From assembly GCA_950097015.1 (NCBI GenBank), contig CATNEN010000039.1, forward strand, positions 19,592,001 through 19,656,000: a DNA stretch of 64,000 nucleotides. Reading direction: 5' to 3'. The DNA is from Macrostomum hystrix (taxonomy: Eukaryota; Animalia; Platyhelminthes). The position numbers and the translations under genes were made by a program. Under the pieces are notes generated by a model that worked only from the letters and a program-made list of their open reading frames with translations, ran no database searches and was not told where the DNA came from. This document shows positions 7,979 through 60,042 of this stretch, piece after piece; positions within the stretch are counted from its first letter, which is position 1; each line of letters starts with the position of its first letter.

Positions 7979-8022
7979 ACTAAAAGGAGACAGACATCCT
8001 AGTTGATAGTGGTCCAGTCAGT

Positions 8023-10258: not shown

Positions 10259-10369
10259 GGCTGCAAGGATTGATTCAGTCCACTTAAACACTTAGAAAGT
10301 GGGGTGGATAACCTTAAGCTACACATTTCTCTATTCATTCTACAGTTATTTTTAGTCGCCTGCGATCAG

Positions 10370-14200: not shown

Positions 14201-17200
14201 AGAAGCAACAGATGGAATCGCAGCAGAGAAGCAACAGATGGAATCGCAGCAGAGAAGCTACAGATGAAATTATACCTGCAAGCTGATGCCACTAGAAGCC
14301 GCCTCGGATATGACAGCTATTAGTTTTTCGCCGTCCATAAATCGCTGCTTCTCAGTCAGGTTAATTAGCTCCATCGACAATTCCGCTTCTCGGCGGCTTT
14401 CGTAGGTCACCTAAAAAAATCAAAACCGCTTTTAATTTCTAACGAGGAAGTAGCTTGTGTTGGGATTTCTGAGGAAGTAGCTTGTGTTGGGATTTCTGAG
14501 GAAGTAGCTTGTGTTGGGATTTCTGAGGAAGTAGCTTGTGTTGGGATTTCTGAGGAAGTAGCTTGTGTTGGGATTTCTGAGGAAGTAGCTTGTGTTGGGA
14601 TTTCTGAGGAAGTAGCTTGTGTTGGGATTTTTGAGGAAGTAGCTTGTGTTGGGATTTCTGAGGAAGTAGCTTGTGTTGGGATTTCTGAGGAAGTAGCTTG
14701 TGTTGGGATTTCTGAGGAAGTAGCTTGTGTTGGGATTTCTGAGGAAGTAGCTTGTGTTGGGATTTCTAATTAAAATACTTTGGGTTGGGATTCCTAATTA
14801 AAATACTTCGGGTTGGGATTTATAGTTAAGATACTTCGGGTTGGGATTTCTAATTAAAATACTTTGGGTTGGGATTTCTAATTAAAATACTTTGGGTTGG
14901 GATTTCTAATTAAAATACTTTGGGTTGGGATTTCTAATTAAAATACTTTGGGTTTGATTTTCTAGTTAAGATACTTCGGGTTGGGATTTCTAACGATCAT
15001 TGAAGTCAGGATTTTTAATCAAGCAGACTAAGGCTGGGATAGGGAGGGGTCGGTGACAGCGGTTATCGCGTTTGCCTTCCGCACCAAGGTCCCTGAGCTC
15101 GATTCCGTGGCGAGGCCGCATTCATTTGGGGCACAGCTGCGAAGAGAAGTCTTGGTGGCTTGTCGTACAATTTACGCCCTTGAGGGCAAACCTCCAAGGC
15201 ACAATGAAGTTCGTACACTGCCTGACGATGAGAAAGTCAGGGCAGGTGTACACACCTGTGTGTGTGCCTGCGTACGGTATCTGTGTGCGTGTGTGCTCAG
15301 GAGTCAGCGAAATGGGCAGAATTGCTTTCTCGCTGGCTGCGGGTCTAGTGTCACCAAATGTTGTGCCTTTGCCCGCAGCCCTCCTGCAATTGTTATCATT
15401 ATTAAGGCTGGGATATTTGATAAGGAAATAGCTTTACTGATCTCTAAAATATGGTGAGAGTGTTACTCACTTGTCCAGCATCGTCAGCGACAACTCGTCC
15501 GCGCCGTCCGGTCATCTCGGCCACCACCACCGGGCCGCCTAGCCTATCGATGAGCTCGTCTAGAGCATTTTTAGGCAGCTGATCGTCCATAGCTTCAACG
15601 GCTTTCAATAGGTCTGCCTTGAGCTGGGCAGCCCGGCGCCGGTCCTCACCCGTCACTTCCCGAGTCGGAGCGCCACCGCCGGATTCGCTGCCGCTGCCGG
15701 CACCATCGGCGGTGTCGCGCAGACGATTCTGACGAACCCACCGACTGCCGAGGATTTCACCGATTGTGTCGTCGCCTTCAAACAAATCCATTAGCGACAG
15801 ATCGACGCTGGGAAAGTGCTTTTCGATTAGCGACTGAAACACGCCTTTGGCTGTGGACACGAAATCGTTTAAGTCTCCCTGCGCTTCTTCCAATAGTTCC
15901 GTGGTTCGAGCCTCGCCTGTTGACTGCAGGCCAATGACAACGCAATGTCCAGCCTCAACTGCCTCTGTAGCCAGCTGAAGATAAGTGCGTAGTATGAGTA
16001 GGGATTCAGTGTATTCTTATAAACAGAACTCAAATCATGGAGATTGTATTAAACAGAACTCAAATCATGGGGATTGTATTAAACAGAACTCAAATCATGG
16101 GGATTGTAATAAACAGAACTCAAATCATGGGGATTGTAATAAACAGAACTCAAATCATGGGGATTGTAATAAACAGAACTCAAATCATGGGGATTGTAAT
16201 AAACAGAACTCAAATCATGGGGATTGTATTAAACAGAACTCAAATCATGGGGATTGTATTAAACAGAACTCAAATCATGGGGATTGTATTAAACAGAACT
16301 CAAATCATGGGGATTGTATTAAACAGAACTCAAATCATGGGGATTGTATTAAACAGAACTCAAATCATGGGGATTGTATTAAACAGAACTCAAATCATGA
16401 GGATTCTAATAAAAAGAACTCAAATCATGAGGATTCTTATAAACAGAACTCAAATCATGAGGATTCTAATAAAAAGAACTCAAATCATGAGGATTCTTAT
16501 AAACAGAACTCAAATCATGAGGATTCTAATAAACAGAACTAAAATCATAGGGATTCTTATAAACAGAACTCAAATCATGAGGATTCTAATAAACAGAACT
16601 CAAATCATGAGGATTCTTATAAACAGAACTCAAATCATGAGGATTCTAATAAACAGAACTCAAATCATGAGGATTCTTATAAACAGAACTCAAATCATGA
16701 GGATTCTAATAAACTTAACTCCAAATGTGGATTATGATTATAAATCCCAAATAAGGGGATTTTCTGACAGCGCATATCTTACCTCAACACATCTGTCAAT
16801 CTTAGCCGAGACGCAAAGGTGTTTAAAGAATCGCTGATGCGCCGACCAGAACTGGCCCCACACCACCTTGCGATTCCTGCCATCAGGATCCGTGCGCTTC
16901 GAAGCCTCCTCGAAGGCCGCCTTTGCCTGCAGCCACAGTCGGCAGCTGGCGTTGTACATTTCAGTGTACTCCTGGCACAGAGGAACCTCGTCTATGCCGA
17001 ATTGGACACCCTGGGATGAGATGAGATTTACAAGCTTTAGATATATACTGGCTAATGCTGAGATGGATACTAGCTAATGCTGAGATGGATACTAGCTAAT
17101 GCTGAGATGGATACTGGCTAATACTGAGATGGATACTGGCTAATGCTGAGATGGATACTAGCTAATGCTGAGATGGATACTGGCTAATGCTGAGATGGAT

Positions 17201-20200
17201 ACTGGCTAATGCTGAGATGGATACTGGCTAATGCTGAGATGGATACTAGCTAATGCTGAGATGGATACTAGCTAATACTGAGATGGATACTGGCTAATGC
17301 TGAGATGGATACTAGCTAATACTGAGATGGATACTGGCTAATACTGAGATGGATACTGGCTAATGCTGAGATGGATACTGGCTAATACTGAGATGGATAC
17401 TAGCTAATACTGAGATGGATACTGGCTAATACTGAGATGGATACTGGCTAATGCTGAGATGGATACTGGCTAATGCTGAGATGGATACTGGCTAATGCTG
17501 AGATGGATACTGGCTAATGCTGAGATGGATACTTGCTAATGCTGAGATGGATACTGGCTAATGCTGAGATGGATACTGGCTAATGCTGAGATGGATACTG
17601 GCTAATGCTGAGATGGATACTAGCTAATGCTGAGATGGATACTGGCTAATGCTGAGATGGATACTAGCTAATGCTGAGATGGATACTGGCTAATACTGAG
17701 ATGGATACTGGCTAATGCTGAGATGGATACTTGCTAATGCTGAGATGGATACTGGCTAATGCTGAGATGGATACTGGCTAATGCTGAGATGGATAATGGC
17801 TAATGCTGAGATGGATACTGGCTAATGCTGAGTTGCTAATATGGACACAAAAAGCTAGACAATACTCACATGAAAGCTAAGCTGTCTAGCGATGTACATT
17901 CCTCGCAGTTTCATATCCATAGCTAGCAGTTCCATAACTCCAATGCCTCTTCGTTCAATAGTGTTGATAAAGTGGGCAAAGGTTGGGAAAGCACTGCCGC
18001 TGCCCCATAGGCCTAGACGGGTCATGTAGCCCATATTCTTAGGCTCCGAGGCGCCAGTAGCCGATGCGTAGACTACCCTGGCCATTGGTAATTGATTTTG
18101 CAAATCTAGCACAGTCTGACCAGTTTTGCTAGGCTTCTGAGAACCAGCAGGATAAAGATTCTTGGCTCGATGGCATTCGTCCAGGATGATTAGGCCTTCA
18201 AATTCTCGGCCAAGAAAGTTGACTAGCTGACGCAGACGGCTCTTATATTTGCTAGTTGAACTGGCCGATTCGCCAATTAGAGACGCGTAGGTGGCGAATA
18301 TGCAGCCTTTGCGAATTCTGCCATTCTCGTCGCTATTGATTTTGGCGTACTTCATTCGGTGGAGAGAATGCACAGCAATCCGATCCGCCTTAATTCATTG
18401 GTTCGGGATTCGAATAGTGACATTGGGATCTTAATGATGTTTTGCCACAGTTGGGAACATTGGAGTACAGACTGGGATCATTGGAGTTGGGACTCTAGGG
18501 GTTGGGATTTTAATTTTTGGGAGTTCGCAATATCAATTTTATAAAATGGATTTTTTAAATGAAAACGACATTATTGATAATTTGAAATAGGATCCTGATT
18601 TATATCAATGGGATTCTGATCTTTGGTAAATGAAATCAAACTTCTTTCAATGAGATTTAGATCCTTTTAAATAAGATTCCGATCCTTTGAAATGAGATTC
18701 CGATCATTTGAAATGAGATTCCGATCCTTTGAAATGAGATTCCGATCCTTTGAAATGAGATTCCGATCCTTTGAAATGAGATTCCGATCCTTGGAAATGA
18801 GATTCCGATCCTTGGAAATGAGATTCCGATCCTTGGAAATGAGATTCCGATCCTTGGAAATGAGATTCCGATCCTTGGAAATGGGATTTAGATCCTTTGA
18901 AATGAGATTCCGATCCTTTGAAATGAGATTCCGATCCTTGGAAATGAGATTCCGATCCTTGGAAATGAGATTCCGATCCTTGGAAATGAGATTCCGATCC
19001 TTGGAAATGAGATTCGGATCCTTGGAAATGAGATTCCGATCATTTGAAATGGGATTTAGATCCTTTGAAATGAGATTCCGATCCTTTGAAATGAGATTCC
19101 GATCCTTTGAAATGAGATTCCAATCCTTTGAAATGGGATTTAGATCCTTTGAAATGAGATTCCGATCCTTGGAAATGAGATTCCGATTCTTGGAATTAAG
19201 ATTCCGATTCTTGGAAATGGGATTTTAATCCTTTGAAATTGGATTTTGATCATTTAAAATGGGATTTAAATCCTTTAAAATGGGATTTAGATCCTTGGAA
19301 ATGAGATTCCGATTCTTGGAAATGGGATTTTGATCCTTTTAAATTGGATTTTGATCATTTAAAATGGGATTTAAATCCTTTAAAATGGGATTTAGATCCT
19401 TGGAAATGAGATTCCGATCCTTGGAAATTGGATTTTGATCATTTAAAATGGGATTTAAATCCTTTAAAATGGGATTTAGATCCTTGGAAATGAGATTCCG
19501 ATCCTTGGAAATTGGAGTCTCAAAATTGCAGCCAAGATTCTTCTTTTTTGTATTATAAAATGTCTAGGATACGCGATTTCGCCGCTAACCTGCAGATCGC
19601 GCAAATCTCGTTCAGCATCTACGCGTAGATCGTTAGACACTGATAGCCACAGGGCGCGCTTCCTCCCGCGCAGATAGTTCTCGTAGAGCAGGGCGGCCAG
19701 GACTCGACCCTTGCCCATGCCGGGACCGTCGCCAAGTAGGTAGCCGGCCCGCTGGCCGCTGGGCAGTATCGATTCGTGGCGCTGACAGGCGTAGATGACG
19801 GCTTCTAATTGAGCACTGCTCAATAGGCCGTCGGAGATTACTTCTTCCGGTAGGCGCAGTTCGTAATGAATATCGGGCGGCTCAACGGCTGCAAGAGAGC
19901 TAGATTCAACGACAACGTCTGGATGCGGACAGCCGATGCGAAGCTTCTGAGGTCTGGGAGGAAAGAATGGACTCTATCAGGCATGAACCACAGCCTAGAA
20001 TCATTGGGTCAGCTATGACCCACAGTCTAGAATCATTGGGTCAGCTATGACCCACAGCCTAGAATCATTGCGTCAGCTATGACCCACAGCCTAGAATCAT
20101 TGCGTCAGCTATGACCCACAGTCTAAAATCATTGGATCAGCTATGACCCACAGCGAAGAATCATTGGATCAGCTATGCTCTCTCAGTTTAGGATGGCTGG

Positions 20201-21436
20201 CAAACAAGCAGCCAGTGATTGAACTCACCGATAGTCTTTGTAAGTCTCAGCCGCCCCCAGCTCCTCCAGCTGATCTTCCAATTCGTCAGCGGCCTCTTCG
20301 CGCTGCCGGCGCAGTGCGTTGTTGCGATTTAAGAGCCGGTCTCTGGCCAACTTTTCGCGTTCCTGTGGCGTCAGAACAGGCGCCGATGCGACTGGCTTTA
20401 ATGAGGCCTGATTAAAAGGCGGTGCCTGACGATTGTATAAAAATGGTGGCTGCTGCTGCTGTTGCTGTGGTCTTATTGGCATACGCACAGGAATTGGCAC
20501 AGTTAACGGTTGTTGCTGTGCAGTTAGCACCTGCACAGGCACATTAGATGTCTGTGGCGTCATGGAAGATGTAGGCAGTGACGGAGGCGGACCAGTCAGA
20601 TTACTGAGGCCGCTCTCAGCTAGTGCCAGCTCCAGCAGGTCGGTGGGCTTTTCAGCTGGCTGACTGGTGGATGAGCTGCTAGGCATCATTTGCGACTGCT
20701 GCGATAGCGGCATCGGTGGAGCTAAACGGACAATCGGCCTGATGCCGCCAAGTGGATTAGCCGCCGATGTTGTCGCGAACCGCATCGGAGACAGCATTGT
20801 TGAAGACGCCGACGAGTATGGCGACGGTGGCGGAACAATGACTCGATGCCGGATGCCACCAGGCGAGACCTGCAAAATGACGGCACCGGGAGGCGGTGCA
20901 CCTACGCGCAGGCCGGAAGCGACAGATGAGACGCGAGTGATGGCACCCGTAGGGGAGGCGGATGACGAAGTCAGCTGATGATGAATCTGATAACGATGCA
21001 TTGGCAGCGGAGTGCCAGCCGCATTTGCAGAAGCAACAGTTGCTATGCCATTGCTAACGGGCAGAAATTGATGACGTACTATCACAGAACCTGAATGCTG
21101 GTGTATCATTGGTGAAGAATGTGGCTGTTGCAGTATTGGCATCTGGGATGCAGTGGTGACAGGATGCTGCTGCTGTTGCTCTTGCTCCTGTGGCTGACCT
21201 AGTGGCTTTTTACTAATAAGGTTGTCAATTTCATCTTCATCTAGATCATCAAGAGGCTCTTCAACAACAGCTGGATTGTTGCCTTTGGCAGTGGATTCCT
21301 CTGGCTTATTAAGCTTATGATTGTTGTTGTTGGCCTCTAGATTAGTTGTAATATTTTCTGTACTAATAGTTGGCGCAATGGGTCGGCTGCCAAAGTCCTG
21401 AGACAGAGCTTCATTGAACAAGTCCAGCTGGTCCAT
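11223..21436 (-). CDS. SBNO1: Strawberry notch homolog (SF2 helicase-like nuclear protein)
   Basis: Nine exons: 21436-20229, 19953-19590, 18388-17870, 17010-16783, 15974-15471, 14410-14276, 14013-13408, 12543-12139, 11507-11223, all GT-AG and frame-consistent. Motifs [109 protein letters not shown]. Confidence 0.95.
11560..12035. repeat. SBNO intron 8 minisatellite, ~24 bp unit CCCCTCACTGTCTTATCTCTCTCA
   Basis: Tandem degenerate copies. Confidence 0.9.
12669..13290. repeat. SBNO intron 7 minisatellite, 23 bp unit CACTTTCTTGAGAACAGGTATCA
   Basis: About 27 near-identical copies. Confidence 0.95.
14055..14268. repeat. SBNO intron 6 minisatellite, 26 bp unit GAATCGCAGCAGAGAAGCAACAGATG
   Basis: About 7-8 copies. 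Confidence 0.9.
14444..14992. repeat. SBNO intron 5 compound minisatellite (27 bp GAGGAAGTAGCTTGTGTTGGGATTTCT, then 28 bp AATTAAAATACTTTGGGTTGGGATTTCT)
   Basis: Two related arrays abutting, sharing GTTGGGATTTCT. Confidence 0.95.
15042..15402 (+). mobile_element. SINE family A, full length with 13 bp target-site duplication
   Basis: TAAGGCTGGGATA at 15029-15041 and 15403-15415; tRNA-like head; TTA-like tail. Confidence 0.9.
16000..16715. repeat. SBNO intron 4 minisatellite, 30 bp unit AAACAGAACTCAAATCATGGGGATTGTATT
   Basis: About 23 copies; variants change progressively along the array. Confidence 0.95.
17046..17840. repeat. SBNO intron 3 minisatellite, 22 bp unit CTGGCTAATGCTGAGATGGATA
   Basis: About 35 copies filling almost the whole intron. 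Confidence 0.95.
18650..19512. repeat. SBNO intron 2 minisatellite, 21 bp unit GAAATGAGATTCCGATCCTTT
   Basis: About 40 copies with degenerate flanks. Confidence 0.95.
19984..20177. repeat. SBNO intron 1 minisatellite, 32 bp unit CAGCTATGACCCACAGCCTAGAATCATTGCGT
   Basis: About 6 copies. Confidence 0.9.
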
Positions 21437-24246
21437 CAAATGATGGCACCTATGGACTGTACAGTTGGTGACACAAAGGCCTTATTGGGCCACTAAGTGG
21501 GCTTTAATTTAGAAATTCTTGTTTGATTATTTTGTAACTTTATCTGCAAAGCCACAATGGCTGCAATTGAAACAAATAAATGTTTAAAAAAACTTATAAG
21601 TCAACTGACTACTTCAGATACAAAATTATTTGTGCCTAAATGTGTCAAATACTTAAATGGTATGTATTTCAGTTACCTTTTGTAACTAAAATTTTATAAC
21701 TATTTTATTTATACTATACCATAATACTATATAAACATATGTATATACTAGCGTATGACTAGTGTGTGGCTAAAATACTCTACTAACTTGATACTTTTCT
21801 ACTTGGGTACATACCATTTATAAATAATTGTTATTAACTATTGATATTATATTGATATTCCCTGAAGGAAAAAACTAAATTGTTGAGTACACATCTGACA
21901 CAATTCTGAAGTGCACAATTGGGCAGCATTGCATGGCACAGCCAATTACCCCGTGCTGTCTTTGTTTTTTCCAATAGGTTTACATAGGTTAAAGCCATTG
22001 TTAGCTTTGTATGGAACTTTTTGAACCAAAATGCCACAGTTCCCTGATGCATGTCCATAAAACTTAGTGTAAAAATTCCAACAGAGTTGATAATTCATTA
22101 TTGATATCAACTATAGAAACTAGTTTATCATTTTTTATCTTTATGATTAGTTGGTTTGATCTTTATGAAAACCTTGAGTTCATCAAACATTTACATATTG
22201 ATGTGCTGTAGTCTGCTATGTCCAAGATTCCTTGATACTTAGAGAATTTTCAGTCCCTGAAAACTCCATCTTTACCGGAAAACTTAGCAATCCCAAGCCT
22301 GATTACTTGGTTGCTCTACTGCTAGAAAGCATCAGTGTTTAGGCTGGTAAAACCCCTCTGACCCCTATTAGTCATTTTTACCAATTGTGTGCCAGGCTAC
22401 CACAGGTGCAACAATAGGAAATGAATATATATTGTATTGAATTTTTATTAAGTATTTCTGACATAAAAAATATTTCTTTCAGATCTGTAATTTTTTATAA
22501 TCACCTCTTACTGAACAGCCCCTTTAAGCATTGTTTTGAGCAATATTTTAAAAGAGCATATGCTGAGCAGCAATATCCTATATACTTTGCTAAGCAATAT
22601 GTATAAAAAAACCTCAGATAAATATTACAGCTGTTACAAAAAATTCGATTTATAATGCCTTAGTGAATTGTCCAATATACCCTTAGGTGTAAAAATGACT
22701 GGATGGCTTAACTTTTATTGCTTAAAAAGTAAACTTATATATGGAGTGCATGATCAATGTAGGTATAAAAAGGTACCTTAAATACTTAAGGAAATAAGTC
22801 ACTCAAAATACTGAATTGGTTGATCTCTAACAAATTCTGATAGGATAGATCACCAATGGTATACAAAGTAACAAAGAAACATTGGTGACAAAGTTAATTG
22901 TCACCTTTGTACCCAAATATACCATTCTTGCTGTTTTTTATTCAGGTTTTTGTTATAGGGCCTAGAACTCATATTCTCATATTTTATCCTCATATTCTAA
23001 TATTCTCATACTCAATATTTACTCATCTTTTGTTAAGAAATTCCCAGTAAAAATATGCACAAAAATGAAAAAACTACAGTATTTGTACATGCTATTTTTT
23101 CCAGTTGCTTTCCAGTTGCTTTCCAGTTGCATTGATATAAATACTAAAATGTTAAATTAAATAGTGGAGAATATTAAACTTTGTGGCAAGAAAGTTTACC
23201 TCTAGTGTAATTTACATTATAGTTTCATGTCATTAACTAGGCCCTATAAAAAAGCAAATAGCAACTTGTCTAGTTCTATATTGAATTTGTTTTAATTGTT
23301 TTAAATTTTATTAGCTTAAGTATATAGTATGCTGCTACTCAACATTAAGCTTTTTTATAGGCCTAACTGGCTCAAAATCATTCTTGAAGTGAGCTGTTCA
23401 GTTACTGAGTTAGACATGTCATTTAAAAAATTATACATAAAATAAGACAAGTGTAGGCCTAGGCCTAAAATTATTAAAAACATAACTGTTCAAAATTTTA
23501 CATTGGAAGATTTGAACCAGCATGATCTAGGCCTAGCTCCAACTCCAGAGGTGGCCCAGACCAACAAGCCATAAAGCCATAGTCATCACTCATCAATCAG
23601 AATTTGTTTTCAGGGTGCTTTGTTTCTCAAACCATCAAATGTGTTTTGTTTGTCCACATTTGATTATTGTTCATTAAAAATGTAAAAAACTATTTGGCCT
23701 AAGCAAAACAAACTGCAAATGGCAATGCCAAAAAAATTAATATTATAAATTATAATCACTTTTTGGGGCCTATATTATAGTAAAAATATAAACAGTGAGT
23801 TCAAGACTAACACCAAACAAACAAATAACAAGCCACTCAGATGTCATAGTAGTGTGCTCCTACACCCTGAGTCTGTCTGGGTGGCTGTGAATACTGGCCT
23901 AGGCCTATTGATAATATTTTAGACATATCTGTCCTGGCAATTGTTAGCTTTTTGGTTGGGATTTAGTAGAATGTATATAAGTAGCTAGTAAGCTAGGTAG
24001 TAGGCCCTACTCAAATTAAAGTATTTTTACAATAAACTAGGAAAATGGTTTTTATTAGGGGGCTGGCTCTGGCTCAAGGTCAATCTTGCTACCTTGCTTT
24101 TAGCTTTGCAAGCTTGTGAAATACCATGCTGTCGCCTGTCTGAGTGTCTGTGCCTCATCAAGATCCTATGAACCCGAAAGGATTAGCAGAGCAGCCAGGG
24201 GCCAGGGCTAGGCCATATTGCCATGAGACAGTAGGTTATACGAAGA

Positions 24247-24375
24247 GCTTGCGTGCACGGCTGCCGTTCACCCAAAGCCATACTTGCGTGCACGGCTGCC
24301 GTTCGCCCAAAGCCATACTTGCGTGCACGGCTGCCGTTCGCCCAAAGCCATACTTGCGTGCACGGCTGCCGTTCG
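24247..24375. repeat. 35 bp tandem repeat CTTGCGTGCACGGCTGCCGTTCGCCCAAAGCCATA
   Basis: About 3.6 near-identical copies. Confidence 0.9.
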
Positions 24376-24764
24376 TATATTATATGATACCATCATTACC
24401 ATGAAGGGCATGTAGCTTTGCATTCAAATATGGCTATATTGCTAATCAAACAAGAATCGGTATATATATATCAATATCTATCGTATCTTAATATTAAATA
24501 TATGCACTGTCCTGTCGGTACGGTACGTAGACCGTAGATCGATTGCTTTTTAAATACTATAGGCCTATTAAGACAATGTAGTGCGATTTTCTTGCCCCAT
24601 TTGAATGTGCGCATTTACTGTAATCTTCCATATTTACATTAACATTCGCGATGTAATTTTGTACTAGTAATGTAATTATATTGTAATTGTATTGTACTTC
24701 CTTCCTTTATCTACTGTAATTTATTGTATTCGTATTTGTTTTAATGTTTGTTACTTAAATAACT

Positions 24765-24870
24765 GCACGTCATCGAGAACCATTAGTCTGTACGCTGATT
24801 GGCTCAGCTTATATTTAAATACACTCGATGGTGATTGGCGGCTACCTTCCCGTGCGGCTGGCGTCGAAGT
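24765..24870 (-). promoter_or_regulatory. Candidate SBNO promoter: CpG-retaining patch with two CCAAT boxes
   Basis: ATTGG (CCAAT on minus) at 24798-24802 and 24834-24838, plus a CRE-like CACGTCA, upstream of the CpG-depleted 5' region of SBNO. Confidence 0.4.
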
Positions 24871-26285
24871 GAGAGCTAAGTTAAAGTTTACATTTTGATT
24901 GCGAGTCTACAACATTTGAAAACCAGTTCAGTAACACGAAATTGTTACAACAAGCAAGGCAAGGCATATTTAAAACTGTCATCCGATTTCAACAAAAGCA
25001 CTTGATAAAGCAGATTGTTCTAAACTTTAGGCAATTTGTTGGCTTTAAGGCATATTAAATTAATTGTTTTGTGCTAATCTTACTGATTTACAGAATTTCT
25101 CAAAAGCTTACATTGCAACAGAGTTCTTGCTCTATTTAACTTACTTAGAAATTGCTATATAAAAATGTATATAAGTAACAATAAAACTCCAGGGCCTCGA
25201 TTACTATTTTTTAAAGCAAGATTCTTATGTGAACAAAACGCCTCGCATGTCCCAGAATATGATTTCATTTCTGTGCTTCTCTCATCTGTTCTTTTTTATT
25301 TCGCGTTTTTTTAGTTATGCTGTTTTACATGCTACACCAGACTCCCGAGCTTAAATCAGGCAGGAACGCAAAAAGTGCATCTTTCTTTCACGTAACTGTA
25401 TTATTCTCTATGCAGTGATTATCTGCGTATAAATAAAATTAATTACGTAGCTAGCTGTAAAATACATCTACAAGTATGTAACTGCATGATTATTATAATA
25501 ATAGTCTTATGGTCTATTATTCCCCCCAAATATGTAGATTAATATTGGGTCCCTGCATGTCTTCTTTCAGAAGTCAGACCGCAAAATAATTGGGCTTGGC
25601 CGGCAAACCCGTACAACAATCCTATGTCGGCAGACTTTCTCGACGCAACTGCTACGTCCAGCGACGTCGATATGGCAAATGGGAATTGTTTAATTACATC
25701 GAAGAAATGAAAAATACGCGAAGACTTACAAAAACCCTCGGAAAATTATTATTGATGCAGAAACAGCATAAAATGCGAAAATTCATGACTGAGCTTCGGC
25801 TTTGTGTAGAAGTTCTCATTTACCACAGTCAGCCGATGTCAGATTATTTGTTTTACTTAATAGCTTCTCCATCCTCTCTTTATCCATTGATTCTCAGCAT
25901 CCGCGATAGTAAGTCATAAAGTTTTGATCGATTCTAAATTTTCCTACGATGAAAAGACTGCTTTCTCAACTGGACCTCCGTAAAGCATAATTGTGTTTTG
26001 TTTTTTTTAACCTGCTTATCATCATGTATATGAGCACGATAGCACCACTGTTGGAGGCGGAAAATGTAATTATTTTTTACTCGTAATCCCGCTCCCATTC
26101 GAAATTACGCAACAATTATACTCAAAGTTATAAATTATTGAAATTCAGTGAAAACTTAATTTAGATACACGCTTTTTTAATATAGTTAACAACGAACCAC
26201 GTGCACAGAAAACACTTCGCTTAATTCTGGATCCTCAGCAACGGAGCTAAGTGTCCTAAACTGAATAGCCCGGATTTGTTTCATA

Positions 26286-29200
26286 TCAAGATCGATCAAT
26301 CATCAAATCAGCAGTTATGGATTCGAATTCTTGAATCTCGGGGACATCATTATTGGCGCTAGATTTAACTGCAGCTGCGGCGGCGCAAGAGTTAGCAGTA
26401 AGGCGGCCGGTGCTGATCGCGTCTGATGATTCAGCGCTGGACTCTGCGTCTGGCTTTACAGGCCTGACAATTCCAGCCGTGGCGCAGTGGTAGATGACAA
26501 AAACAGGACAATCGCCGGTTTCATCTGTCTCATAGCGGGCTACTAGTTCGCGCACCATTTCCAGTGAGAATAGTGACCGGCTCTCGCGATGCAGTTCGAC
26601 GCTGGTGCATAGTTGACAGTCGGAACGACCGAAGCCGCCAAAAAAGGCGATCGAACCGGCGCCGCTGAAGTGCGGACACTCCAATACTTGGATCTGGCCG
26701 CGTCTATTGGCAAACAGCCACACTGAGCCCAGCCAAGGCACTGTGAACCGACTGGGCACTAGTAGGTTCAGTGTGTCTTCCTGGTCGGCTGGAGGATGAA
26801 ACAATTGTTGTAGGACAATGCAATCAGTATATACTGAGTATGCTAGGGCTACGGCACACATACACAGCTGACGTATAGTCCAATATTGGTTATAGCCTAA
26901 CTTAAAACTGACAGATCTGGAAATAAAATCCTAGCAAAAATCAATGTGGCTGCCTTTGGCAGCCTCAAACCCAAAGGTCGCGCATTTCAAACCCAAAGGT
27001 CGCGCCTTTCAAATTCAATGTGGCGCCCTTCAAAATCCAAAGGGCGCTCTTCAAATCTAAGGTGGTGTTCCCCAAAGCGGAGTGGTGTTCACCAAAATCC
27101 GTGGGAATCCAAGGTAGGGTTCCCTCCAAATCCAAGGTGGTTTTCTCGCAAATCCAAGGTGGTTTTCTTGCAAATCCAAGGCGGTTTTCTCGCAAATCCA
27201 AGGTGGTTTTCCCTCAAATCCAAGGTGGTTTTCTTGCAAATCCAAGGCGGTTTTCCCCCAAATCCAAGGCGGTTTTCCCCCAAATCCAAGGTGGTTTTCC
27301 CCCAAATACAAGGTGGTTTTCCCCCAAATCCAAGGCGGTTTTCCCCCAAATCCAAGGTGGTTTTCCCTCAAATCCAAGGTGGTTTTCCCCCAAATCCAAG
27401 GTGGTTTTCCCCCAAATACAAGGTGGTTTTCCCCCAAATCCAAGGCGGTTTTCCCCCAAATCCAAGGTGGTTTTCCCCCAAATCCAAGGTGGTTTTCCTC
27501 CAAATCCAAGCGTCTGATGCCGTCGACATATATAATTTATCTACCTTACCGTTGTATAACGACAAAGTAAATTCCACCGCAGAAACTTACCAACAAGGAA
27601 TCCGTCATCAATGGTGACGTAACGAATCTTGACTCGATGCTGCTGCGGTCCCCCTTCGAACCAGATAATCTCCGAGCCGGAATCAACGTAGCGCATTGGC
27701 GAGAAGTCGAGCCGCATTTCTGCAAGCAGCTGGAATGGATCCTTCTTGTAGGCGTTGAGAACTACCCTTCGAGACACAGTGTAGAATGAGCAGAGCAAGA
27801 TTCGGGTATCGCTGACTGATACCTGTACAGATGAAGGTTTCAAAATTTGAATTATTTGTACTTTATTGCTAAGTTTTCTGGAAAGTGTTGTTACCTGAAC
27901 TCCATCATTAACTCACGTAATATACTCAATGCGGAATTTTCAAGTGGCCCCAGAAAGCAGAAAAGTGAGTATACTGAATGCTCAATAATGCAGATAAGCA
28001 GGATATGCTCAATTGGATGCTCAATTAAAGAGAATCGTTCTATAGGGACTTAAGTCAGTGTGGGTGAGTACCAGAGCGGTTAAACTCGTTTACTCTTCGT
28101 ATGATCGGCACCTGTCTATCTATCTGCAGGGGGGCCCGGGGCACTTGTCGCACAAGCGACGGAGCGGCACGCCCCCAGACCGGCGAACTAGGCGCTTTAG
28201 CGCCCATCGCGCCGCCTCCCCTGAGCAGGCACCACATACAGCAGCACAGACCAGCCGGGGAGGGCAGGAGGCACCCAGAATAGGCAGCAGTGTCCCCCAC
28301 CCCCGCCCCACACGCACAGAGCAGACCAAGCCGGGGCGGAAGGCTGATAAGAAATCAGTCCTCAGGGGGGGGCCGGGTGATGAGTGTACACTTATCCAAT
28401 CGCGCTGACGGAATTCCAGAGAGCGCGCGGCGGTGTACACCCGCCCTCCAGCCACCCCCGCAAGGTCTAACGCCCCAGCGCCAACGCACAAACTCATACA
28501 ACGCAGAAGGCACACAGAAGGTAGGAGCGAAGCTATTATTTCAAGCTTTGATTGCACGAAATATGGTGCACCTCCGCCGGTCGCTACTGTCCAAAACCCC
28601 GCCCAACAAGTCCCGAAATTAATCGTGACTTGAAGGGTGAATCGAACTAGCGTCCTTTGGAGTGCGAGGCAGCGACGTTAGCCGCTGACCCACTCGCCCC
28701 TTCATGATCGGCACCTGAGCTCGATTCATAGCTACAAATGTTGCAGTTTACAATCGATCTAGAAGTACTTGACTCTCATTGGCACAACAGACTGCAGAAC
28801 AGAATTGCCTAGTACGCTGGCTGCGGGTCAAATGTCTCTCAGACGAAGAACCAGTGTCTACAACCCTCCTGCAAAAAATATTCGCTCGAATTACTGTCAG
28901 GGACTGGGGTGTGTCGGTGGCAGAGCGGTTAAACGCGTTTGCCTCTCGCCCAAAGGTCTATAAGCTCGATTTTGCGGCAAGAACACATTCATTTGGGGCA
29001 CAGCCGCGGAGAGAAGGCTTGGGGGCTTGTCGTGCAATTTACGCCCTTGAGGTTCAACCTCCAAGGCTTAGTGAGAGTGTACACTGCCTGACGATGAGAA
29101 AGTCAGGGCAGATGTACACACCTGTGTGAGCGTGTGCCTGTGTACGGCATCTGCATGTACCTCCCCTGCACGTGCTCAAGAGTCCGCGAAATGGGCAGAA

Positions 29201-34378: not shown

Positions 34379-34940
34379 TTTTCTTGCTTCGAGTAAGTCT
34401 TGGAAGGAGCTGTCGAAGAAATTTGCCTGTTGAACAAAACTTAGAGTTTAGCTGAATGACCGATGAACTGATGAAATATTGCTTTAGCTTGATTCTAAAT
34501 TCAAGGCAACAAACGGCTGCAAGTTATTAACACTGAAAGCTATTTAAGTGTTATATAAATTAAGCAGAAACTTGGAGTGACTGAACGATGATGTATCCCT
34601 CACTTGCCCCGGGCAGTTGTCTATGTTTTTAAGCTTACAATTTATTTGCACTAGTGCAATAAATTATTTATTTCACTTTGCATCGATGCAAATAAATTAA
34701 CTATAACACAGAACTATAACACAACCATAGACAAACAGAATGTCTAAAAATAAAAATGTTTGTTTGCCCGTTTCATGTTAGGGATACATATCATATTTGT
34801 TGTATGATGTTGAATTCGGCTTCGCCTCGGTCAATAAGCTTTATACATTTTCCTATAAACTCTCCCCTCAATTTTCATCTCTTCTTATCGTTTCTAGAAA
34901 ACCGTGCAGGAATGACTTTGTCTATGGTCAAAAGACAATG

Positions 34941-39208: not shown

Positions 39209-41872
39209 TTGTTAAAACGAATTCCCCCGAAGGGGCGCGGGGCGCGGATCAGTTCCGAAGAACTCTGCCGCAGAGATATAAAATAAATTTAATCAAAATT
39301 TTATAAAATATGTACACGCAATTCGATTTAGATTATTTTGTACGAATTAAACATACGATTAAACATAAATAAAAAAATAAATAAATAAGTAAATAAACAA
39401 ATAATAAAATTTCTTAATAATAAAATAAATATTTAAAAAGCTAGCAGTTTGTGAATAAAGGGCAAAAATAACAAAAACCTTATATACTCGTAGGCAATAA
39501 AAGCATTTAGTCAGTTGAAAAATAGCATAAAATAGGGACTGGAATAACAGAGCAGCTGAGCACTGCTCATCAGCCCTCTTGAGCTCAGGCAGATATTAAA
39601 ATTTAATTTTAGTTTACTTTCATTCAGGGCCATGGGTCTCAGAGACTGCTCAGCCCTGGATTGGGAGCGGGTTCTGCCCATTGATTTGTCCCCGCCTCAG
39701 GGCAGCCCACAGGACATTGAGGATGGGAACTCGGCCCGGAGCTCGAGGCAGCTCCGGCTCGATGTGGAAGCCGTGCTCATCTTGAGCAGCCAGGCCACAC
39801 TGAGCCGCTTGACTCTAGCTGAGAGCATTGGCATGCCGGCCAGTTTGTGAAGGTATTCGGTGCTCAGGTGCTCAGAAAAGTAGGAAGGCACACCATAGCA
39901 GATGCGCAGAGCAAGGTTCTGGATCTTTTGCAGCTTGATCTGGTTGGGGACGCAGATCAGAGTCAAGATTGGGGCGCCGTAGGTGAGAGCGCTCTCACCG
40001 TAGGCCCTGTACAGCATCTTGAGAGTGACGCTGCTCAGTTTGGTGATCTTGGTGATGCGGCACAGGGACATGACAATGGCCCTGCACGTGTTCGCCATGT
40101 TTTCCACGTGTTTGTTCAAGCAGAGATTTGCGTCAACGAGGACACCTAGAAATTTCACTTCCTGACAGTAGGGGACCTCCGTCTGTCCCAGCTGCAATTT
40201 GGGTCGCAAGTCGGCGCGAGCTGTCGGCTTGTTGTTGAAGGCGACAGCCTTGCTCTTGTCGGCATTCAGTCTGATGCCTTGCTTGCCGCACCACTCCCAG
40301 ACTTGTCTGAGGTAGCTCTGGAGGCATGTCCGCAGACCAGCAAAGGTGTCATCGATGTCGGCCGGAATCGGATAGAAGGAGGAGAACTGGGCAACTTCGG
40401 CCACCTCCTGTTTGAGCTGGTCGCAAGTGGATGGGACTGGGCGCATCTTTGAGTCCAGAGTGGCCGCGAGAAGGTTCGCTTTCTCCAGATCAGTGTGCGC
40501 ACTGGTTTGACCCGAAGTGAGGGTTGGGATGGAGGTGGGCTTGAACTTGCCCATCAGCTTCCTGGTGTCATGCCAGAAGTTCTTGACCTTGCTGTTTTTG
40601 CTGTTCTCGACAACATTCTCCTGTTGGCCATTTGGTTGGCCAGCCTTTTGAAGTTTTCATCGTGCGTGCTGTTGAAGAGGCGTCTGAGTTTTCGGCGCTC
40701 TTTAATGAGCTCGAGGATGGGCTTGGGCAGAGCATTTCGGCCACCACAGTTTGTCACTGTCGACTCAATGACCGTGTGGATGGCCTTTGTGATGAGCTCG
40801 ACCTCAGCGTCAATTTGCTGAGCACTCAATAGGCGAGTCGGCTGGTCAGGAAGAAGGGCTTCATTGATCCCAGTTGGTTTTGGAAAAGTTTTTCGACTTC
40901 GCGGGACCTGCCCACTTTGCGGACTGAATGTTGAGGGTGAGGATGATTAGCAGGTGGTCGCTGTCCAGGCCAGGACCGACTGCAAAGTACTGCACAAAGG
41001 GCAGAAAGTCCTCCGTGGCCAGGCCGAGGTCCAAGACATTCCTGGAAATGGCGCCGTTCTTGGTGGCGATTCTGGTGAACTGGCCAACTTGATTGAGGAT
41101 GGTGGGCGAGGTCGGACCTTCAGAGAGCCAGTCGTACAGCTCATGGCCAGCCTTGTTGTTGCTGCTGTCACCGCCAAGGAAGCGGTGTCTGGCATTGAGG
41201 TCGCCAAGGAGAACACTGCGTCTGCGCGAGACCAGGCTCTTGAGCAGGTTCAGGTTCAGGTGGTAAGATGCCGGAGACCTGTACACTAGAGCCAGATTAA
41301 AGTCAGTACTGTAAGAGTTGTCAGACAGGCTGACGGTGCAGGAGATGGCTTCATGGTTCACGTTGTCGTAGTGCAAGCGAACATTGGTGAGTATGACGCG
41401 CGGTGAGTGAGCAAGGAGCAGTCCGCGTCTGACATGCGGAGTGTCGTACCGGATGATGGACTGATGATCCCAGATCCCGGATCTGGACCGTGTGCGAACT
41501 CTTGAGAATTGTTTCAGAGAAGAGAGCAGTGTCTATTGCTTGACTAATGACCCATTGGGTGAGTTCCTGCTTTTCGGGTGGAACCCTCTGCAGTTGAGGT
41601 GCATAATTTTCAGACCCGATGTGTGGGTAATAGGGTTACCATTTAATTTAAGGAATTTACAGTTTTCTGGTTTAGCTGCCTGGACCCACGACCCCGGTGG
41701 CGGTGGAGGCCATTCCAGACACGTCCTGGAGGACAGCCCGCACAATGTCCTCGACCATTTTACTGGTCGATTCCACTGTTAGGAGCTCACGTACCAGGCG
41801 GCCTAGACAGGGCCCGCACAATCACCTGGGTCAGAGAGCGGGTGATCAGGGGCAACATCATGCTCACTTAGG
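39209..41872 (-). mobile_element. 5'-truncated, frameshifted APE-type LINE lacking the RT catalytic core, with 16 bp TSD
   Basis: Endonuclease motifs LKIMHLNCRG, LVYRSP, LGDLNARH, VLDL, DSDH; C-terminal RT/thumb LQSYL..W....GIRLNADKS, VKFLGVLVD, LYRAY, LQKIQNLALR; A/T-rich 3' UTR with short CAA tail; TSD GAGCT(C/T)AGGGACTTTG at 39193-39208 and 41873-41888. Confidence 0.88.
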
Positions 41873-42800: not shown

Positions 42801-44751
42801 TCATGGAGCTGAGAAGTGTCGAACAGTCTATTGCTAAAAATCTGCGGAGGATTCATTCGAGTGCAACGACGAATGAGCCCAAGCTCCGTGTCGGTAGAGG
42901 AGCGCGCCGAGGCTGGTGCTGGCGAGGGCTCAGACGGAGACAAGGAGGACGAGGTGTGGTGCGGAGTCCCAAATTCTGAGGGTCCATCCAACGCAATTAG
43001 GCCCGGAGCCAGAGCAGGCTGCAGCTGTGGGCCAACACTATGCTGCTGTATCGGGTCTGATGGTGCGACGCGGCGCCGGATTCCGGGACTCTGCGCCTAC
43101 CACGCCATCCTTGACGCGTCTGTGGACCCGGTCTGTACTTTTTGTCGCATGCTCCGCTTCTTCCTTTAGCAACAATTCAGATTTTATTTGAGGTCTATTT
43201 TCTAAGTATTAAGACAGACGGCAACTGTCTTGCAGAAACCACAGCTAGACAGCTTGTTAGTTTTAAATGAACCAATCTGGTAGAAGCTTCAAAATAGATT
43301 GTGTAGCTTTTTAGCTTTTTATGCGTACACTCTTGCTTAAACATTCGCACTAACAACATTAAATCTATGTCGTTTTTATAATCGATAGTCAAACATTTTA
43401 TGAGTGAATTCCAGTATTAAAACAAATTCATGCTCGTAAATTTTTCTTGGAACTGACTCGGCGTGATCCGAGCTAAAAGTACAGTGACATCAAGGTTTAA
43501 TGAGTAACATCAACAGTAGAAAAGAAAGAAAGGCTTGGTGCAGTGCTCTAGTATTAAAAATATTATAAATTGTAATAAAATACATCCTATTAAAATAATG
43601 AGTATTGTTTTTTACTTGACTTTAGTAAGCAGCTATTTTGTAATGTCAATAATCCAAAGTTGGCTTAGTTATGTTGTCAATTGGCTAGTCCTATTTTTCA
43701 TTATTTTGGCTTGAAATTAGACTTCCTTTAAATATACATTTACAATTTACAAGTACACTTACAGTGCTGCATGGCATTCCCATTTTATTATATTGTACTC
43801 CCGCAAGCTTTGCCTTTGCTATTGCTACTGTAAGTTGTAGGCCTACCATTGATGTTTTTTCAGAGGCATGTAAATTATATTTATGTGCCACTGACAGATA
43901 TTTTGCAATTGTACTTTTTTACTTATGTTAAGGCCTGTAACTGCTATTTATAAATAATTTATTTGTTGCAGTCTAAGAATGACAGTTATTATTTATATTT
44001 TTTGTGTAGGGCCTAGACAATTATATTTATGATATGTACATTCTCTTAGGCCTATATATAAATTAAATTACATCTGTCTTGTACTTATGTTAGGCCTAAT
44101 TCATAAATGTTTGTTTTTATTTATCTCGTATTCATAGTCCAGATCATGTAGTGCCCACAGGAATTTTCTAGTACACATTTAGCTTTGGTTGGTGTGTATG
44201 GCATGTATCAGTATATAAGGCCCCTACTTTAAAGAGTTGGCGTGCATGGTGTGCATCATGCATTTATGATAGATCAAATGCGCTGTTTTTTATTAATTAT
44301 ATTTAATAGTTTTAATTGTGTAAATAAATAGCAGTAAGCCTAGAAATTTACATTATCAATAATTACAAACTTTGCATGACTAAAACCAAATGTTCTGTCA
44401 GCATCATACATGCGCAACCTCCCAAATCTTAGCCGGCCGTGCGACTTAGTTTTTGCTCTCATTTGCTCTCTTTTTCTCTCCCCTTTTTCTTTTTCTTCAC
44501 GCCTTCCTTTTTTGTCCCTTGGTCCCCCCTTTAATTTTTTTTGTGCTTGGTCAATTGGTTTTTGCAACTTACCTTGCTTGGCCCTCTTTTCACCCAGCCA
44601 GTTCGACTGGGTTGGTCGGGTGTTGCGCATGTATGGTCAGCATTATAAACTTTATAAGCTTTATAAATTGGACTAGGGCCTATAAATACTTTTAAAAATT
44701 CATTGTTATATGCTCCATTTGAAAAATAATATTTTAATATTTGCAATAAGG

Positions 44752-45070
44752 GCTATGGGCAGTGGCATATCATTTGGTGACACAACCTGCAGCTAGCAAG
44801 GAGGCAATTCTGCCCATTTTGCTGACTCCTGAGCATATATGCACACTACTGTACGCAGGCATACACTCACATAGGTGTACATATCTGCCTTGACTTTCTT
44901 ATTTTTAGGGAGTGTATAATCTCTGTGCCTTGGAGGTTGGTCTTCAAGGGTACACAAGCCCCTAAGACTTCTCTCTGTGGCTACACCTCAAATGACCTTG
45001 TAGTGGAATTGAACTTGAAGACTTATGGTGCAGAAAGCAAATTTATGAACTGCTCTGCTACCAACCCCCT
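44752..45070 (-). mobile_element. SINE family A copy with near-complete CpG decay
   Basis: Aligns to the consensus with CG>TG/CA at almost every CpG (e.g. ctccgcggctgcgcc > ctctgtggctacacc). Confidence 0.85.
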
Positions 45071-45388
45071 ATATGTTCCATTGCTTTTATTTAAATACAG
45101 CATGCAAATAACTTTCTCCTTTTAATTGAAAAATATGCTATGTCTTTTACAAGCTACAAATGTCAGTTTTGTCCTGATGGACATGTTTCTGCAGGCCACA
45201 TTTTCAAACAGCTGCTTCAGTAATTTGTGGCACTACCTAAAACTATAGCCAGAAAAATGTTTAGAATTTTTTCTACATCCTTGCGAAAAAGCTTTTTCCC
45301 AATCATCTTTTTTAAATTTCATATTACTGTTTCATGGCTAAAAATAAAAGACATAGAAATAAAATTTCAGCATTTGCTAAAATCAGTC

Positions 45389-48300
45389 ATGGAAGATGCT
45401 GAGACAGAGCGAGTTCAAGTGTCATTTGTTACAAAAGATTCACAGTGAGTATCATTTGCTACTATCACTAATTTAATTTCATTTCCACCCAAAGCTGTTT
45501 AATATATTTTTAATTTCACTGTGCTTTGATTAACATTCTAGATTCTCAGTGAGCAGCTATCCTATCTATGTTCAGTTAGATAGTAGTCGAGGAGATTTAA
45601 GTGACATGGTGAAGAGCCTTCTAGCCTCAGATCATCATGGTAAGAAAATACAATTTTTATAATGTTCTAGAAATGTTTTCATTTCACAGTACGGGACTAC
45701 CAAGCCCTTTTGCCACCCGTTTTTATACCAAGGAATTCCCCCCCCAGAAAACTTTTTTTGGCAGCGCCCGAATGCCAACAGCGTTGGGTGGTGACTGATT
45801 GGTTGACAGACTAGGCGAGGGTGTCCTGTGGTTGAGCTGTGCCTAATATTTAGGTTGATCAGTGAAATTAGAGAAATTCGCGTCAGGGTGTCCATAGTGG
45901 CCTAGTTCCACCTGTTGTAGCCCTCGAAGGTCCTGCAGTTAATCAAGATAAAGGTAGGTGACCACCAAAGTCGAAGATGATGACATGCTGATAAATTTTG
46001 AAGGCCTGGCAAGGCCGCACTGAGGCGCAGTGCTAATTTCTCAGCCAGAACTGTTGAATATCTCGTCGGTCTGAAGTGCTGGCGAATCTATTCTTGTTTC
46101 AGAAGATGCTCAGCAAAAACTTAGTCCGTGTTCTTTTCTTGTGCTGGGGGGTGGGTAAATTTCCTTGGTTGTTCTACTGTTAGATGTTTTGTAATGGGTA
46201 AACGGCGGAAGCAAGTATGAATGGCGTCCCTACGAATATGCTTCGGAATTTAATTACGAGGGTAATTTCATGCTCGTAGTAATTAGTATGCTAGCAAGTA
46301 TTTTTTTCTCCGCAGGTTCCCAATCGAACGGGGACGCTATGCCGCCAGCCGAGTTCGAATTTCTTGTCCAAGATGAACTGCTCGTCGGCAGCCTGCGCCA
46401 GCTGATTCAAGATCGCGGCCTAGCCATGGACGCCGTCCTACGGGCAGAATATTTTCCTAGGCGCTCGGCGCCGGCGCCGCACGCCGAATTGGCGTTGGGC
46501 AATTTTGTTAGCTGCGTCAGGATTAACGGTCGGCGAATTCTGATTGGCTGCTATGATTGCAGCGTCGCTATTGGTGACATCGATGGAGGTTCGGAATTCG
46601 GCTTGAAACTGCCCGACGCGCACGAGAAGGAAGTGAAATCTGTCGACTGGTTAGCGGCTGCCGTCGATGCCAACGGCGACGGCGCCGGTGTTCGCGAGTT
46701 CGTTTCCGCCGGGCACGATCAAGACTGTCGCGTCTGGCGCTGGGATTTGGACGGCACGGCTAAATGCCTGGCCGTGTGCAAAGGCCACGCCTCCAGCGTA
46801 CTGTGCGTTGCCGGCAGCCCAGGGCCAGCTTACGGCCATTTCGCCTCCGGCTGCTACGAGGGCCGGGTGAAACTGTGGCGCGCCAGCGAGGAGGCTATGA
46901 CTGCTGAGACTGGTAATGCTTGCTTGAGCACAACTTACCTTAGTGCTGAACAGACAAATAATCACTGTCATTGAATATTGAGACTATGAGACAGTGAGAA
47001 CAGCTGTAAGACAGTGAGAACAGCTGTGAGACTGTGAGAACAGCTGTGAGACAGTGAGAATAGCTGAGACTGTGATAACAGCTGTGAGACAGTGAGAACA
47101 GCTGTGAGACAGTAAGAATAGCTGAGACTGTGAGACAGTGAGAACAGCTGTGAGACAGTGAGAATAGCTGAGACTGTGAGACAGTGAGAACAGCTGTGAG
47201 ACAGTGAGAATAGCTGAGACTGTGAGAACAGCTGTGAGACTGTGAGAACAGCTGTGAGACAGTTAGAATAGCTGAGACAGTGAGAACAGCTGTAAGACAG
47301 TGAGAACAGCTGTGAGCCTGTGAGAACAGCTGTAAGACAGTGAGAACAGCTGTGAGCCTGTGAGAACAGCTGTGAGACTGTGAGAACAGCTGTGAGACTG
47401 TGAGACTGTGAGAACAGCTGTGAGACTGTGAGAACAGCTGTGAGACTGTGAGAACAGCTGTAAGACAGTGAGAACAGCTGTGAGACAGTGAGAACAGCTG
47501 TAAGACAGTGAGAACAGCTGTGAGACAGTAAGAATACCTGAGACTGTGAGAACAGCTGTGAGACAGTTAGAATAGCTGTAAGACAGTGAGAACAGCTGTG
47601 AGACTGTGAGAACAGCTGTGAGACTGTGAGAACAGCCGTGAGACTGTGAGAACAGCTGTGAGACTGTGAGAACAGCTGTGAGACTGTGAGAACAGCTGTG
47701 AGACTGTGAGAACAGCTGTGAGACTGTGATAACAGCTGTGAGACTGTGAGAATAGCTGAGACTGTGAGAACAGCTGTGAGCCTTAAGCCATTTTATGGGG
47801 GGTGAGTGGCAGAGTGGTTAACGCGTTTGCCTCTTGCACCAAGGTCCCTGAGCTCGATTCCGCGGCGAGGCCACATTCATTTGGGGCGCAGCCGCGGAGA
47901 GAAGGCTTGGGGGCTTGTCGTGCGATTCCACGCCCTTGAGGGCCAACCTCCAATGCACAATGAGAGTCTTCACTGCCTGGCGATTTACAGTAAAAGTCAG
48001 GGCAGATGTACAGACCTGTATGAGCGTGTGCCTGTGTACAGTATCTGTGTGCGTGTGTGCCCAGGAGCGAAATGCGCAATGGGCAGACTCGCTGGTTCCG
48101 GGTCTAGTGTCACCAAATTTGACACACTGCGCCATTGCTCGCAGCCCTGCTGCAATTATTATTATTATCAAGCCATTTCACAGTTCGCCAGCCAATCTCG
48201 CAAACCCTTACCAACCAGGCGGCATCAGTCACCAGAGCAAGCACTCGGTGCCCAGTCGGGTGCCCCTGCGCACCCTGCCGGGCCATCGGGACGCCGTACA

Positions 48301-52133: not shown

Positions 52134-52555
52134 AGTTCCTAAGACAGATCCTAACTTGATCCACTGAGTAACTGGCTAGGTGAATTAGTGTGGGTGTGTT
52201 CATTCCTGCCCTGTAAAGCAGTCTCAGCCTGTTTAATCCAGATGGCAGTTTGCCAGTTTGAAAGAATATTAGAAACTTTATAAAACGATATAAAAAGTTG
52301 ATCCGGTTTTTTTGGCCAGAGTCAACAAGGCCGTTAGCCCATCTGCCATCTGCTCTGTATTCCAATTTGTTTGCCTCAGAGCGAAAGGCGCATTTTGAAA
52401 CGAAAGAAAAACTTTTTGTAACTTATTCACACACACACACACACACACACCGGTTTAAACCACATCGGCCGTCTAGAAAGACTGCGATTATATATTTGAT
52501 TGATTGAAATGCTTCCTTGAAGCGAGACGAGGTTTTCCAAATTTCCAAATAGAAG

Positions 52556-56156: not shown

Positions 56157-60042
<3,886 letters not shown>

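Follow-up and report, generated by a model that had tools for sequence, protein, structure and literature searches.

The pattern described here, two stretches of DNA at the 5' ends of the genes SBNO and WDR12 of the flatworm Macrostomum hystrix (Platyhelminthes) that have lost nearly all of their CpG dinucleotides, finds its closest described counterparts in the gene-body methylation of other invertebrates. Both stretches lie in 64,000 nucleotides of assembly GCA_950097015.1 (contig CATNEN010000039.1, positions 19,592,001 to 19,656,000, forward strand), hereafter the window, whose own coordinates are used throughout. In insects with 5'-biased gene-body methylation, among them Nasonia vitripennis (PMC3794928) and Planococcus citri and Nicrophorus vespilloides (PMC7343188), 5-methylcytosine (5mC) is reported to be sparse, to occupy the 5' portion of genes with broad expression and to fall deeper in the gene, with transposons mostly spared. 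The figures given for Nasonia are 65.7% of CpGs methylated in the 500 bp after the start codon against 5.1% before it, and 0.7% in introns (PMC3794928), and in the other two species methylation is placed in the first three exons (PMC7343188). Similarly, the sharp-edged domains described on transcription units of Ciona intestinalis (PMC3827831) and of annelids and molluscs (PMC11292947) include introns, and passive methylation is reported for repeats inside such introns but not for copies elsewhere, a contrast resembling that between a decayed repeat in the WDR12 domain and its sister copies. The layout in M. hystrix nevertheless departs from both the whole-gene type and the type confined to insect coding exons. 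Unlike methylation in Nasonia, the CpG loss lies mostly before the start codon (in first intron, non-coding exon and likely outron), runs on regardless of exon borders and in SBNO stops after 360 bases of the coding exon; and unlike the domains of Ciona, annelids and molluscs, which are reported to cover nearly the whole transcribed region and to be depleted at gene ends, it takes the form of a 5' domain of about 3 kb. Within the genus, M. lignano is reported to possess DNMT1, DNMT3 and low 5mC (PMC11292947, PMC9246332, PMC10658182; Wasik et al. 2015 as cited there), and a small methylated fraction would suit domains that cover about 8% of the window. The genome-wide methylation pattern of free-living flatworms was called unknown by a 2022 review (PMC9246332), and the accessible part of PMC3710501 is concerned with DNMT2/MBD only. 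In the literature searched, which offered only reviews and passing mentions, neither a start-confined CpG scar nor a methylome was found for Macrostomum or free-living flatworms; Wasik et al. 2015 may bear on novelty.

The core of the first domain (domain 1; 21077..24132, assigned to neither strand) takes in the SBNO 5' leader and the first 120 codons. Six CpGs are left there (21374, 21384, 21752, 21952, 22276 and 22646), against 88.7 expected from composition-matched background, giving an observed/expected ratio (O/E) of 0.07 (Poisson 2e-30, for an interval picked post hoc), and CpGs are dense through 21075 and dense again from 24133 on. The background consists of 30 AT-rich 300-bp windows outside both domains and has a CpG O/E of 1.04 (block-bootstrapped, 0.81-1.16). 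An original prediction, drawn from the letters of the window alone, had counted about four CpGs in 21481-24120 and had set the depletion against AT-rich DNA elsewhere that keeps its CpGs. Exactly four occur in these 2640 non-coding bases, where their own composition predicts 66.2 (O/E 0.06), and the AT-rich controls that it named do retain CpG (O/E 1.17 in 1680-2290, 1.09 in 24900-26280 and 0.95 in 60500-62800). The excess of TpG and CpA that it proposed as a check is also present, TpG having an O/E of 1.36 against 1.08 in the background and CpA 1.18 against 1.12, with GpC unaltered; depletion of CpG with gain of TpG and CpA, as expected of invertebrate gene-body methylation, is thus seen in the domains. 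With tandem repeats masked, a two-state hidden Markov model returned exactly two CpG-depleted segments, together the 8% given above, and the lowest CpG O/E among 387 other 1.5-kb stretches of the window is 0.62. Low-CpG windows at 7501-8000, 16001-17500, 33500-34100, 47000-47800 and 58500-59600 proved to be minisatellites with a CpG-less unit and were masked. The second of the two domains, at 43471-45691, had been overlooked in the original prediction.

The fitted edges of domain 1 differ in quality: that in the SBNO coding exon is sharp (21079, interval 21015-21107), and the upstream edge is looser (24241, interval 24113-24458) because repeats are located there. A 35-bp tandem unit, multi-copy genome-wide and CpG-retaining (24240..24375, unstranded), obscures it. 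Further out lies a multi-copy dispersed repeat (24577..24950, unstranded), recognised in DNA run X1 by its many divergent contigs and by a summed contig depth of up to 813, where single-copy DNA has 72-76. This repeat contains the CCAAT motifs (24798, 24834) of a patch near 24800 close to which the original prediction had the depletion end upstream; the patch is real, but it sits inside the repeat about 600 bp from the edge, and a promoter role is unsupported. Domain 1 itself is largely single-copy DNA. It holds a short multi-copy fragment of about 100 bp near 22300, for which seven difference rows were obtained, too few for counting, with a single case in which the window has TG and other copies have CG, and no repeat inside the domain has a sister copy elsewhere in the 64 kb. 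A degraded inverted pair was also observed (22483-22609 with 23296-23438, 68% identity over 145 columns), which may be what remains of the two termini of an old DNA transposon. Over 3657 bases of domain 1 there were 0 allelic differences, so that no polymorphism spectrum was available; the DNA run with the best coverage may be the window's own source and hence not independent.

The boundary inside SBNO falls within a single exon. The first coding exon (20229..21436, minus strand) has codons 1-120 (21436-21077) inside domain 1 and codons 121-403 outside it, in good agreement with the original prediction, which had the depletion run into the first ~350 nt of coding sequence before the exon turns CpG-rich; in this exon the loss is limited to 360 bases. 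Aligned with M. lignano SBNO P0001 (residues 1-356), the protein of this exon shows 44% identity, and for an SBNO exon the identity with the M. lignano protein reaches 94%. Since the N-terminus aligns with M. lignano SBNO from residue 1, the affected part is old coding sequence and no recently captured intron. Codons of the form NCG make up 1/31 in codons 1-120 against 30/112 in codons 121-403 (p=0.003), and at synonymous third positions C before G occurs in 0/15 against 18/44 (p=0.002). Controls free of CpG do not differ between the two parts, neither C before non-G codons (21/46 against 37/85, p=0.86) nor G-ending glutamine, glutamate and lysine codons (18/29 against 28/40, p=0.61), and the effect is consequently CpG-specific and positional. 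The remaining ~10 kb of SBNO retains its CpGs, and its downstream exons are CpG-rich.

RNA evidence comes from spliced contigs in three of 8 public runs listed from 2 studies, none of them recorded as RNA; X2 and X3 belong to one study and X7 to the second, and both domains are covered by such contigs and hence are transcribed DNA. At SBNO, contig X2-9 is continuous over 20229-24269, spanning domain 1, entering the coding exon and showing a splice at 20229; contig X3-20 spans 22144-24300 with 0 differences. Together they define an unspliced transcribed 5' leader (21562..24300, minus strand), likely an outron. Two TTGCAG splice acceptors stand 5' of the ATG (21544..21561, minus strand), and mature-type RNA contigs end at both: X3-17 at 21561, with 21 unaligned letters beyond, and X7-24 at 21544. 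These acceptors are likely spliced-leader trans-splice sites. The published Macrostomum spliced leader is given as 35 bases ending in ATG (PMC8629364; PMC10468722), and it is this leader, the length of the unaligned extensions and their stop on the acceptor's last G that argue for trans-splicing at both SBNO and WDR12. The SBNO transcription start lies at or upstream of 24300, concealed by repeats, and domain 1 accordingly measures ~3.2 kb or more from the RNA 5' end.

Domain 2 (43471..45691, unstranded) occupies the 5' end of WDR12, a conserved gene with an exon that shares 78% identity with an M. lignano protein whose best solved relative is human WDR12, and it provides the recurrence that had been proposed as a further check. 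It contains 16 CpGs against 67.0 expected, or 8 against 52.4 when a miniature inverted-repeat transposable element (MITE) is excluded. Its upstream edge is fitted at 43473 (interval 43468-43587), and its downstream edge, because of an inserted repeat, is uncertain (45717-46206). The non-coding first exon (43481..43829, plus strand, GT donor at 43830) has 1 CpG against 8.0 expected, and the promoter side is spared, 43100-43480 having 15 CpGs against 13.5. RNA contigs of two runs from one study begin at the CpG edge, X2-9 at 43481 and X3-16 at 43502, the latter splicing 43502-43829 to 45371; the match of edge and contig starts is a hint of start-site anchoring and not a map. Domain 2 is 2.2-2.7 kb long from the RNA 5' end and includes coding exons 1-2 (45371-45444 and 45542-45638, plus strand, ATG at 45390). 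The next coding exon (46315..46913, plus strand), covered by RNA contigs, lies outside it and is CpG-rich, with C before G at 46/62 synonymous sites. The acceptor at 45370 seems to be used both by the cis-spliced non-coding exon (run X3) and by an extension resembling the spliced leader (run X7), in which contig X7-22 ends at 45370 with 22 unaligned letters.

Repeats inside domain 2 act as reporters of how the CpGs were lost. A short interspersed nuclear element (SINE) copy (44723..45065, minus strand) has six sister copies elsewhere in the window, one of which, at 15036-15391 in a downstream SBNO intron, retains its CpGs like the others. Counts refer to these seven copies; two short matches, of 102 and 118 bases, went uncounted although aligned, and 4 shorter ones were left unaligned. 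In the copy within domain 2, 18/19 scorable family CpGs have become TG, CA or TA (4 further sites, gapped or otherwise changed, were unscored), against 22/109 in the six sisters (p=5e-10), and its CpG O/E is 0.07, where those of the sisters are 0.64-0.89. Changes at A/T sites are alike (7/129 against 54/779, p=0.70); the copy is therefore no older than its sisters, and the scar was made in place. CpG loss is set by position, not by repeat identity. The MITE (44405..44635, unstranded) has 14-bp terminal inverted repeats and an intact 8-bp target duplication, and run X1 contains it in very many copies; it is presumably hAT-like, judging by the length of the target duplication, and is young. It keeps 8 CpGs against 12.1 expected. 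Over a 27-base stretch its sole differences from sister copies are two CG>CA changes, as read by eye against a single loose-end consensus, which suggests that CpG decay in domain 2 is still running.

These observations would most probably represent the mutation scar of germline CpG methylation confined to the promoter-proximal first ~3 kb of the transcript (~2.3-3.3 kb at SBNO and WDR12). The loss follows position and ignores exon or intron identity: leader and first intron are affected, as are a non-coding exon, short coding exons and a portion of a long one, and in SBNO the loss stops in mid-exon. Heritability of the loss points to action in the germline. The original prediction of a 5'-restricted gene-body methylation system is thereby supported, with the qualification that most of the affected DNA is outron or first intron, so that "transcription-start-proximal" describes it better than "gene-body". 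Mechanistically, 5mC would be laid by DNMT3, maintained by DNMT1 and deaminated to T in germ cells or neoblasts, an early-elongation chromatin mark at broadly expressed promoters would set the extent of the domain, and genes downstream in operons would escape it. DNMT3 has a non-CpG preference of CpA > CpT > CpC, and extra C>T in that same order may reflect its side activity. Methylation of histone H3 lysine 79 (H3K79) and ubiquitination of H2B are candidates for the mark that would set the domain. Trimethylation of histone H3 lysine 36 (H3K36me3) was considered and rejected, being described in planarians as shifted 3' on active neoblast genes, a misfit to a 5' domain (PMC6169894), and the accessible part of a Schistosoma report contains nothing decisive on the targeting mark (10.64898/2026.01.23.701327).

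Several points weigh against this interpretation. It concerns two genes in one 64-kb window, and 5mC is deduced from a mutation scar, the 8 public runs listed including no bisulfite, EM-seq or nanopore data. Contig ends only bound start sites, that of SBNO is masked by repeats, and the SINE reporter belongs to domain 2, with no scorable reporter in domain 1. Conserved ELMOD and PHD-finger genes carry no domain (O/E 0.93-1.06 around their starts). A Ciona transgene is reported to have kept ~1 kb downstream of the start unmethylated (PMC3827831), whereas here the loss begins at the first transcribed bases. The mutation spectrum raises further difficulties. A simulation that turned 92% of background CpGs into TG or CA yields a G+C of 0.312 against the 0.310 seen in the domains; it misses TpC (O/E 0.68 in the domains against 0.87 simulated), CpC (1.22 against 0.92) and TpA (0.95 seen against 0.75), and it overshoots CpA/TpG (1.25 seen against 1.37). 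Adding CpA decay corrects CpA/TpG and part of TpA only. Likewise, non-CpG C>T is raised in the SINE of domain 2 (29/150 against 44/875 in the sisters). Finally, TAGGCCTA is enriched in the domains, which hold 8/10 of the copies in the window (binomial 8e-8, with the motif chosen post hoc), and a literature search with TAGGCCTA as a whole word gave no match; GGCCTA occurs at 6.2 per kb in the domains against 0.08 in AT-rich background and is not generated by simulated CpG or CpA decay. The raised non-CpG C>T, the TpC loss and the TAGGCCTA enrichment are unexplained by CpG loss alone. By context, the non-CpG changes in this SINE number 16/56 at CpA, 8/43 at CpT and 5/50 at CpC, against 4-6% in the sisters (CpA against CpC, p=0.03), and TCG sites have changed in 7/8 cases against 15/36 at other CpGs (p=0.046). 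A fuller version of the methylation account, in which a promoter-anchored interval starts at the first transcribed bases, takes in outrons and first introns, occurs once per transcription unit and is set by an early-elongation mark other than H3K36me3, with germline CpA methylation leaving both the mutation signature and the TAGGCCTA-rich landscape, is offered tentatively and is rather doubtful as a whole.

It is in this spectrum that the best-surviving alternative finds its footing, namely cytosine deamination linked to transcription and independent of 5mC, whether enzymatic or through an exposed non-template strand, acting in the first few kb of germline-active genes. Somatic hypermutation is likewise confined downstream of a promoter. 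The roughly four-fold rise of non-CpG C>T in the domain 2 SINE, the depletion of TpC and the beginning of the affected interval at the RNA start would all be accommodated, and changes lean weakly to the non-template strand (34/108 against 17/86, p=0.07). Yet CpG cytosines of the SINE have changed far more often than its other cytosines (22/44 against 29/150), the domains show a surplus of CpA and TpG, and non-CpG cytosines of the SINE are not favoured in TpC (6/26, similar to 8/30 in ApC and 10/40 in CpC). Given also that M. lignano is reported with DNMT1, DNMT3 and low 5mC (PMC11292947), deamination of unmethylated cytosine is an unlikely source of the domains.

A slightly poorer prospect is that the domains are patches of transposon silencing, in which methylation was attracted by old mobile-element debris in long leaders and first introns and extended from there into the neighbouring exon, the link with start sites being incidental. 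Debris is at hand, domain 2 containing the SINE and the MITE and domain 1 the multi-copy fragment near 22300 and the degraded inverted pair. Nor is the rest of the genome wholly exempt: in SINEs outside the domains, transitions have affected 23/229 CpG sites against 44/875 non-CpG sites (p=0.008), an approximately two-fold excess, and a frameshifted long interspersed nuclear element (LINE) fragment with an endonuclease domain (39697..41532) has the lowest CpG O/E outside the domains (0.62-0.69). From the SINE excess, the genome outside the domains may carry a little methylation. The proposal that repeats and downstream exons look unmethylated fits the exons, which are CpG-rich, and fits the repeats less well, in view of the SINE excess and the LINE O/E of 0.69. 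Silencing directed at transposons is nonetheless hard to reconcile with six of seven scored SINE copies keeping their CpGs, one of them in the downstream SBNO intron, with repeats at both domain edges that retain CpGs, with a domain 1 that is mostly single-copy, and with a WDR12 edge that coincides with an RNA start and with no repeat boundary. An origin of the domains in chance composition, in selection against CpG or in the insertion of foreign AT-rich DNA is very improbable and largely refuted, for despite a regional G+C of 0.32-0.34 and a low-complexity SBNO N-terminus with one arginine in codons 1-120, matched AT-rich DNA has an O/E of 1.04, the loss affects synonymous sites and a non-functional SINE, the same mRNA has CpG-rich exons further downstream, and the continuation of domain 1 across the conserved SBNO coding start argues against an insertion.

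If methylation restricted to transcript starts is the cause, the genes that lack a domain have to be accounted for as well. Eight gene starts were scored in the window, those of unconfirmed genes being placed by eye, and 2/8 (SBNO and WDR12) have a domain. Among the eight, it is absent at ELMOD and the PHD-finger gene mentioned above and at two Ly6-like genes, a phospholipase-D-like (PLD) gene and one gene without an assigned identity. The original prediction had listed Ly6, PLD and ZNF474 genes as lacking a domain; this is so for Ly6-like and PLD, and the ZNF474-like gene, which may have its 5' end outside the window, is no negative. ELMOD (8023-10265, on the same strand as SBNO) starts ~960 bases past the SBNO stop (11223), or ~700 without a tandem repeat, has a splice acceptor 2 bases before its ATG, and fits in its spacing the published 1-kb rule for operons (PMC8629364). 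The PHD/zf-HC5HC2H gene (3505-6168, plus strand), AF10-like by domain content, is preceded on the same strand by an open reading frame that ends in a hydrophobic tail (332-765), and the two possibly form another operon. ELMOD and the PHD-finger gene are thus possibly downstream operon members, a guess from spacing that would account for their absent domains. Of the remaining genes, the Ly6/three-finger-like pair (33030-34560 and 36790-38150; assigned by cysteine pattern) are tandem duplicates with a common 32-bp intronic minisatellite, and the secreted PLD gene (52553-54543, named by eye) has a cysteine-rich tail and is CpG-rich throughout. An expressed four-exon gene just upstream of SBNO (26286-30771, minus strand) is without a CpG domain, and none of its four pieces gave a Pfam match. 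Introns downstream in SBNO, ELMOD, WDR12, PLD and the ZNF474-like gene are mostly filled by differing 16-35-bp minisatellites, and the leader and first intron within the domains are minisatellite-free.

The implications reach beyond the two loci. The targeting of invertebrate gene-body methylation becomes testable in a genus with transgenesis, the domain edges being open to comparison with histone marks, start sites and operon position. Further, if the methylation account is true, CpG depletion would mark, from sequence alone, the transcription start sites that trans-splicing hides, and under its fuller, once-per-unit version it would also map the heads of operons. Likewise, the domains would locally raise the mutation rate in sequence for the N-termini of housekeeping proteins, as a hotspot.

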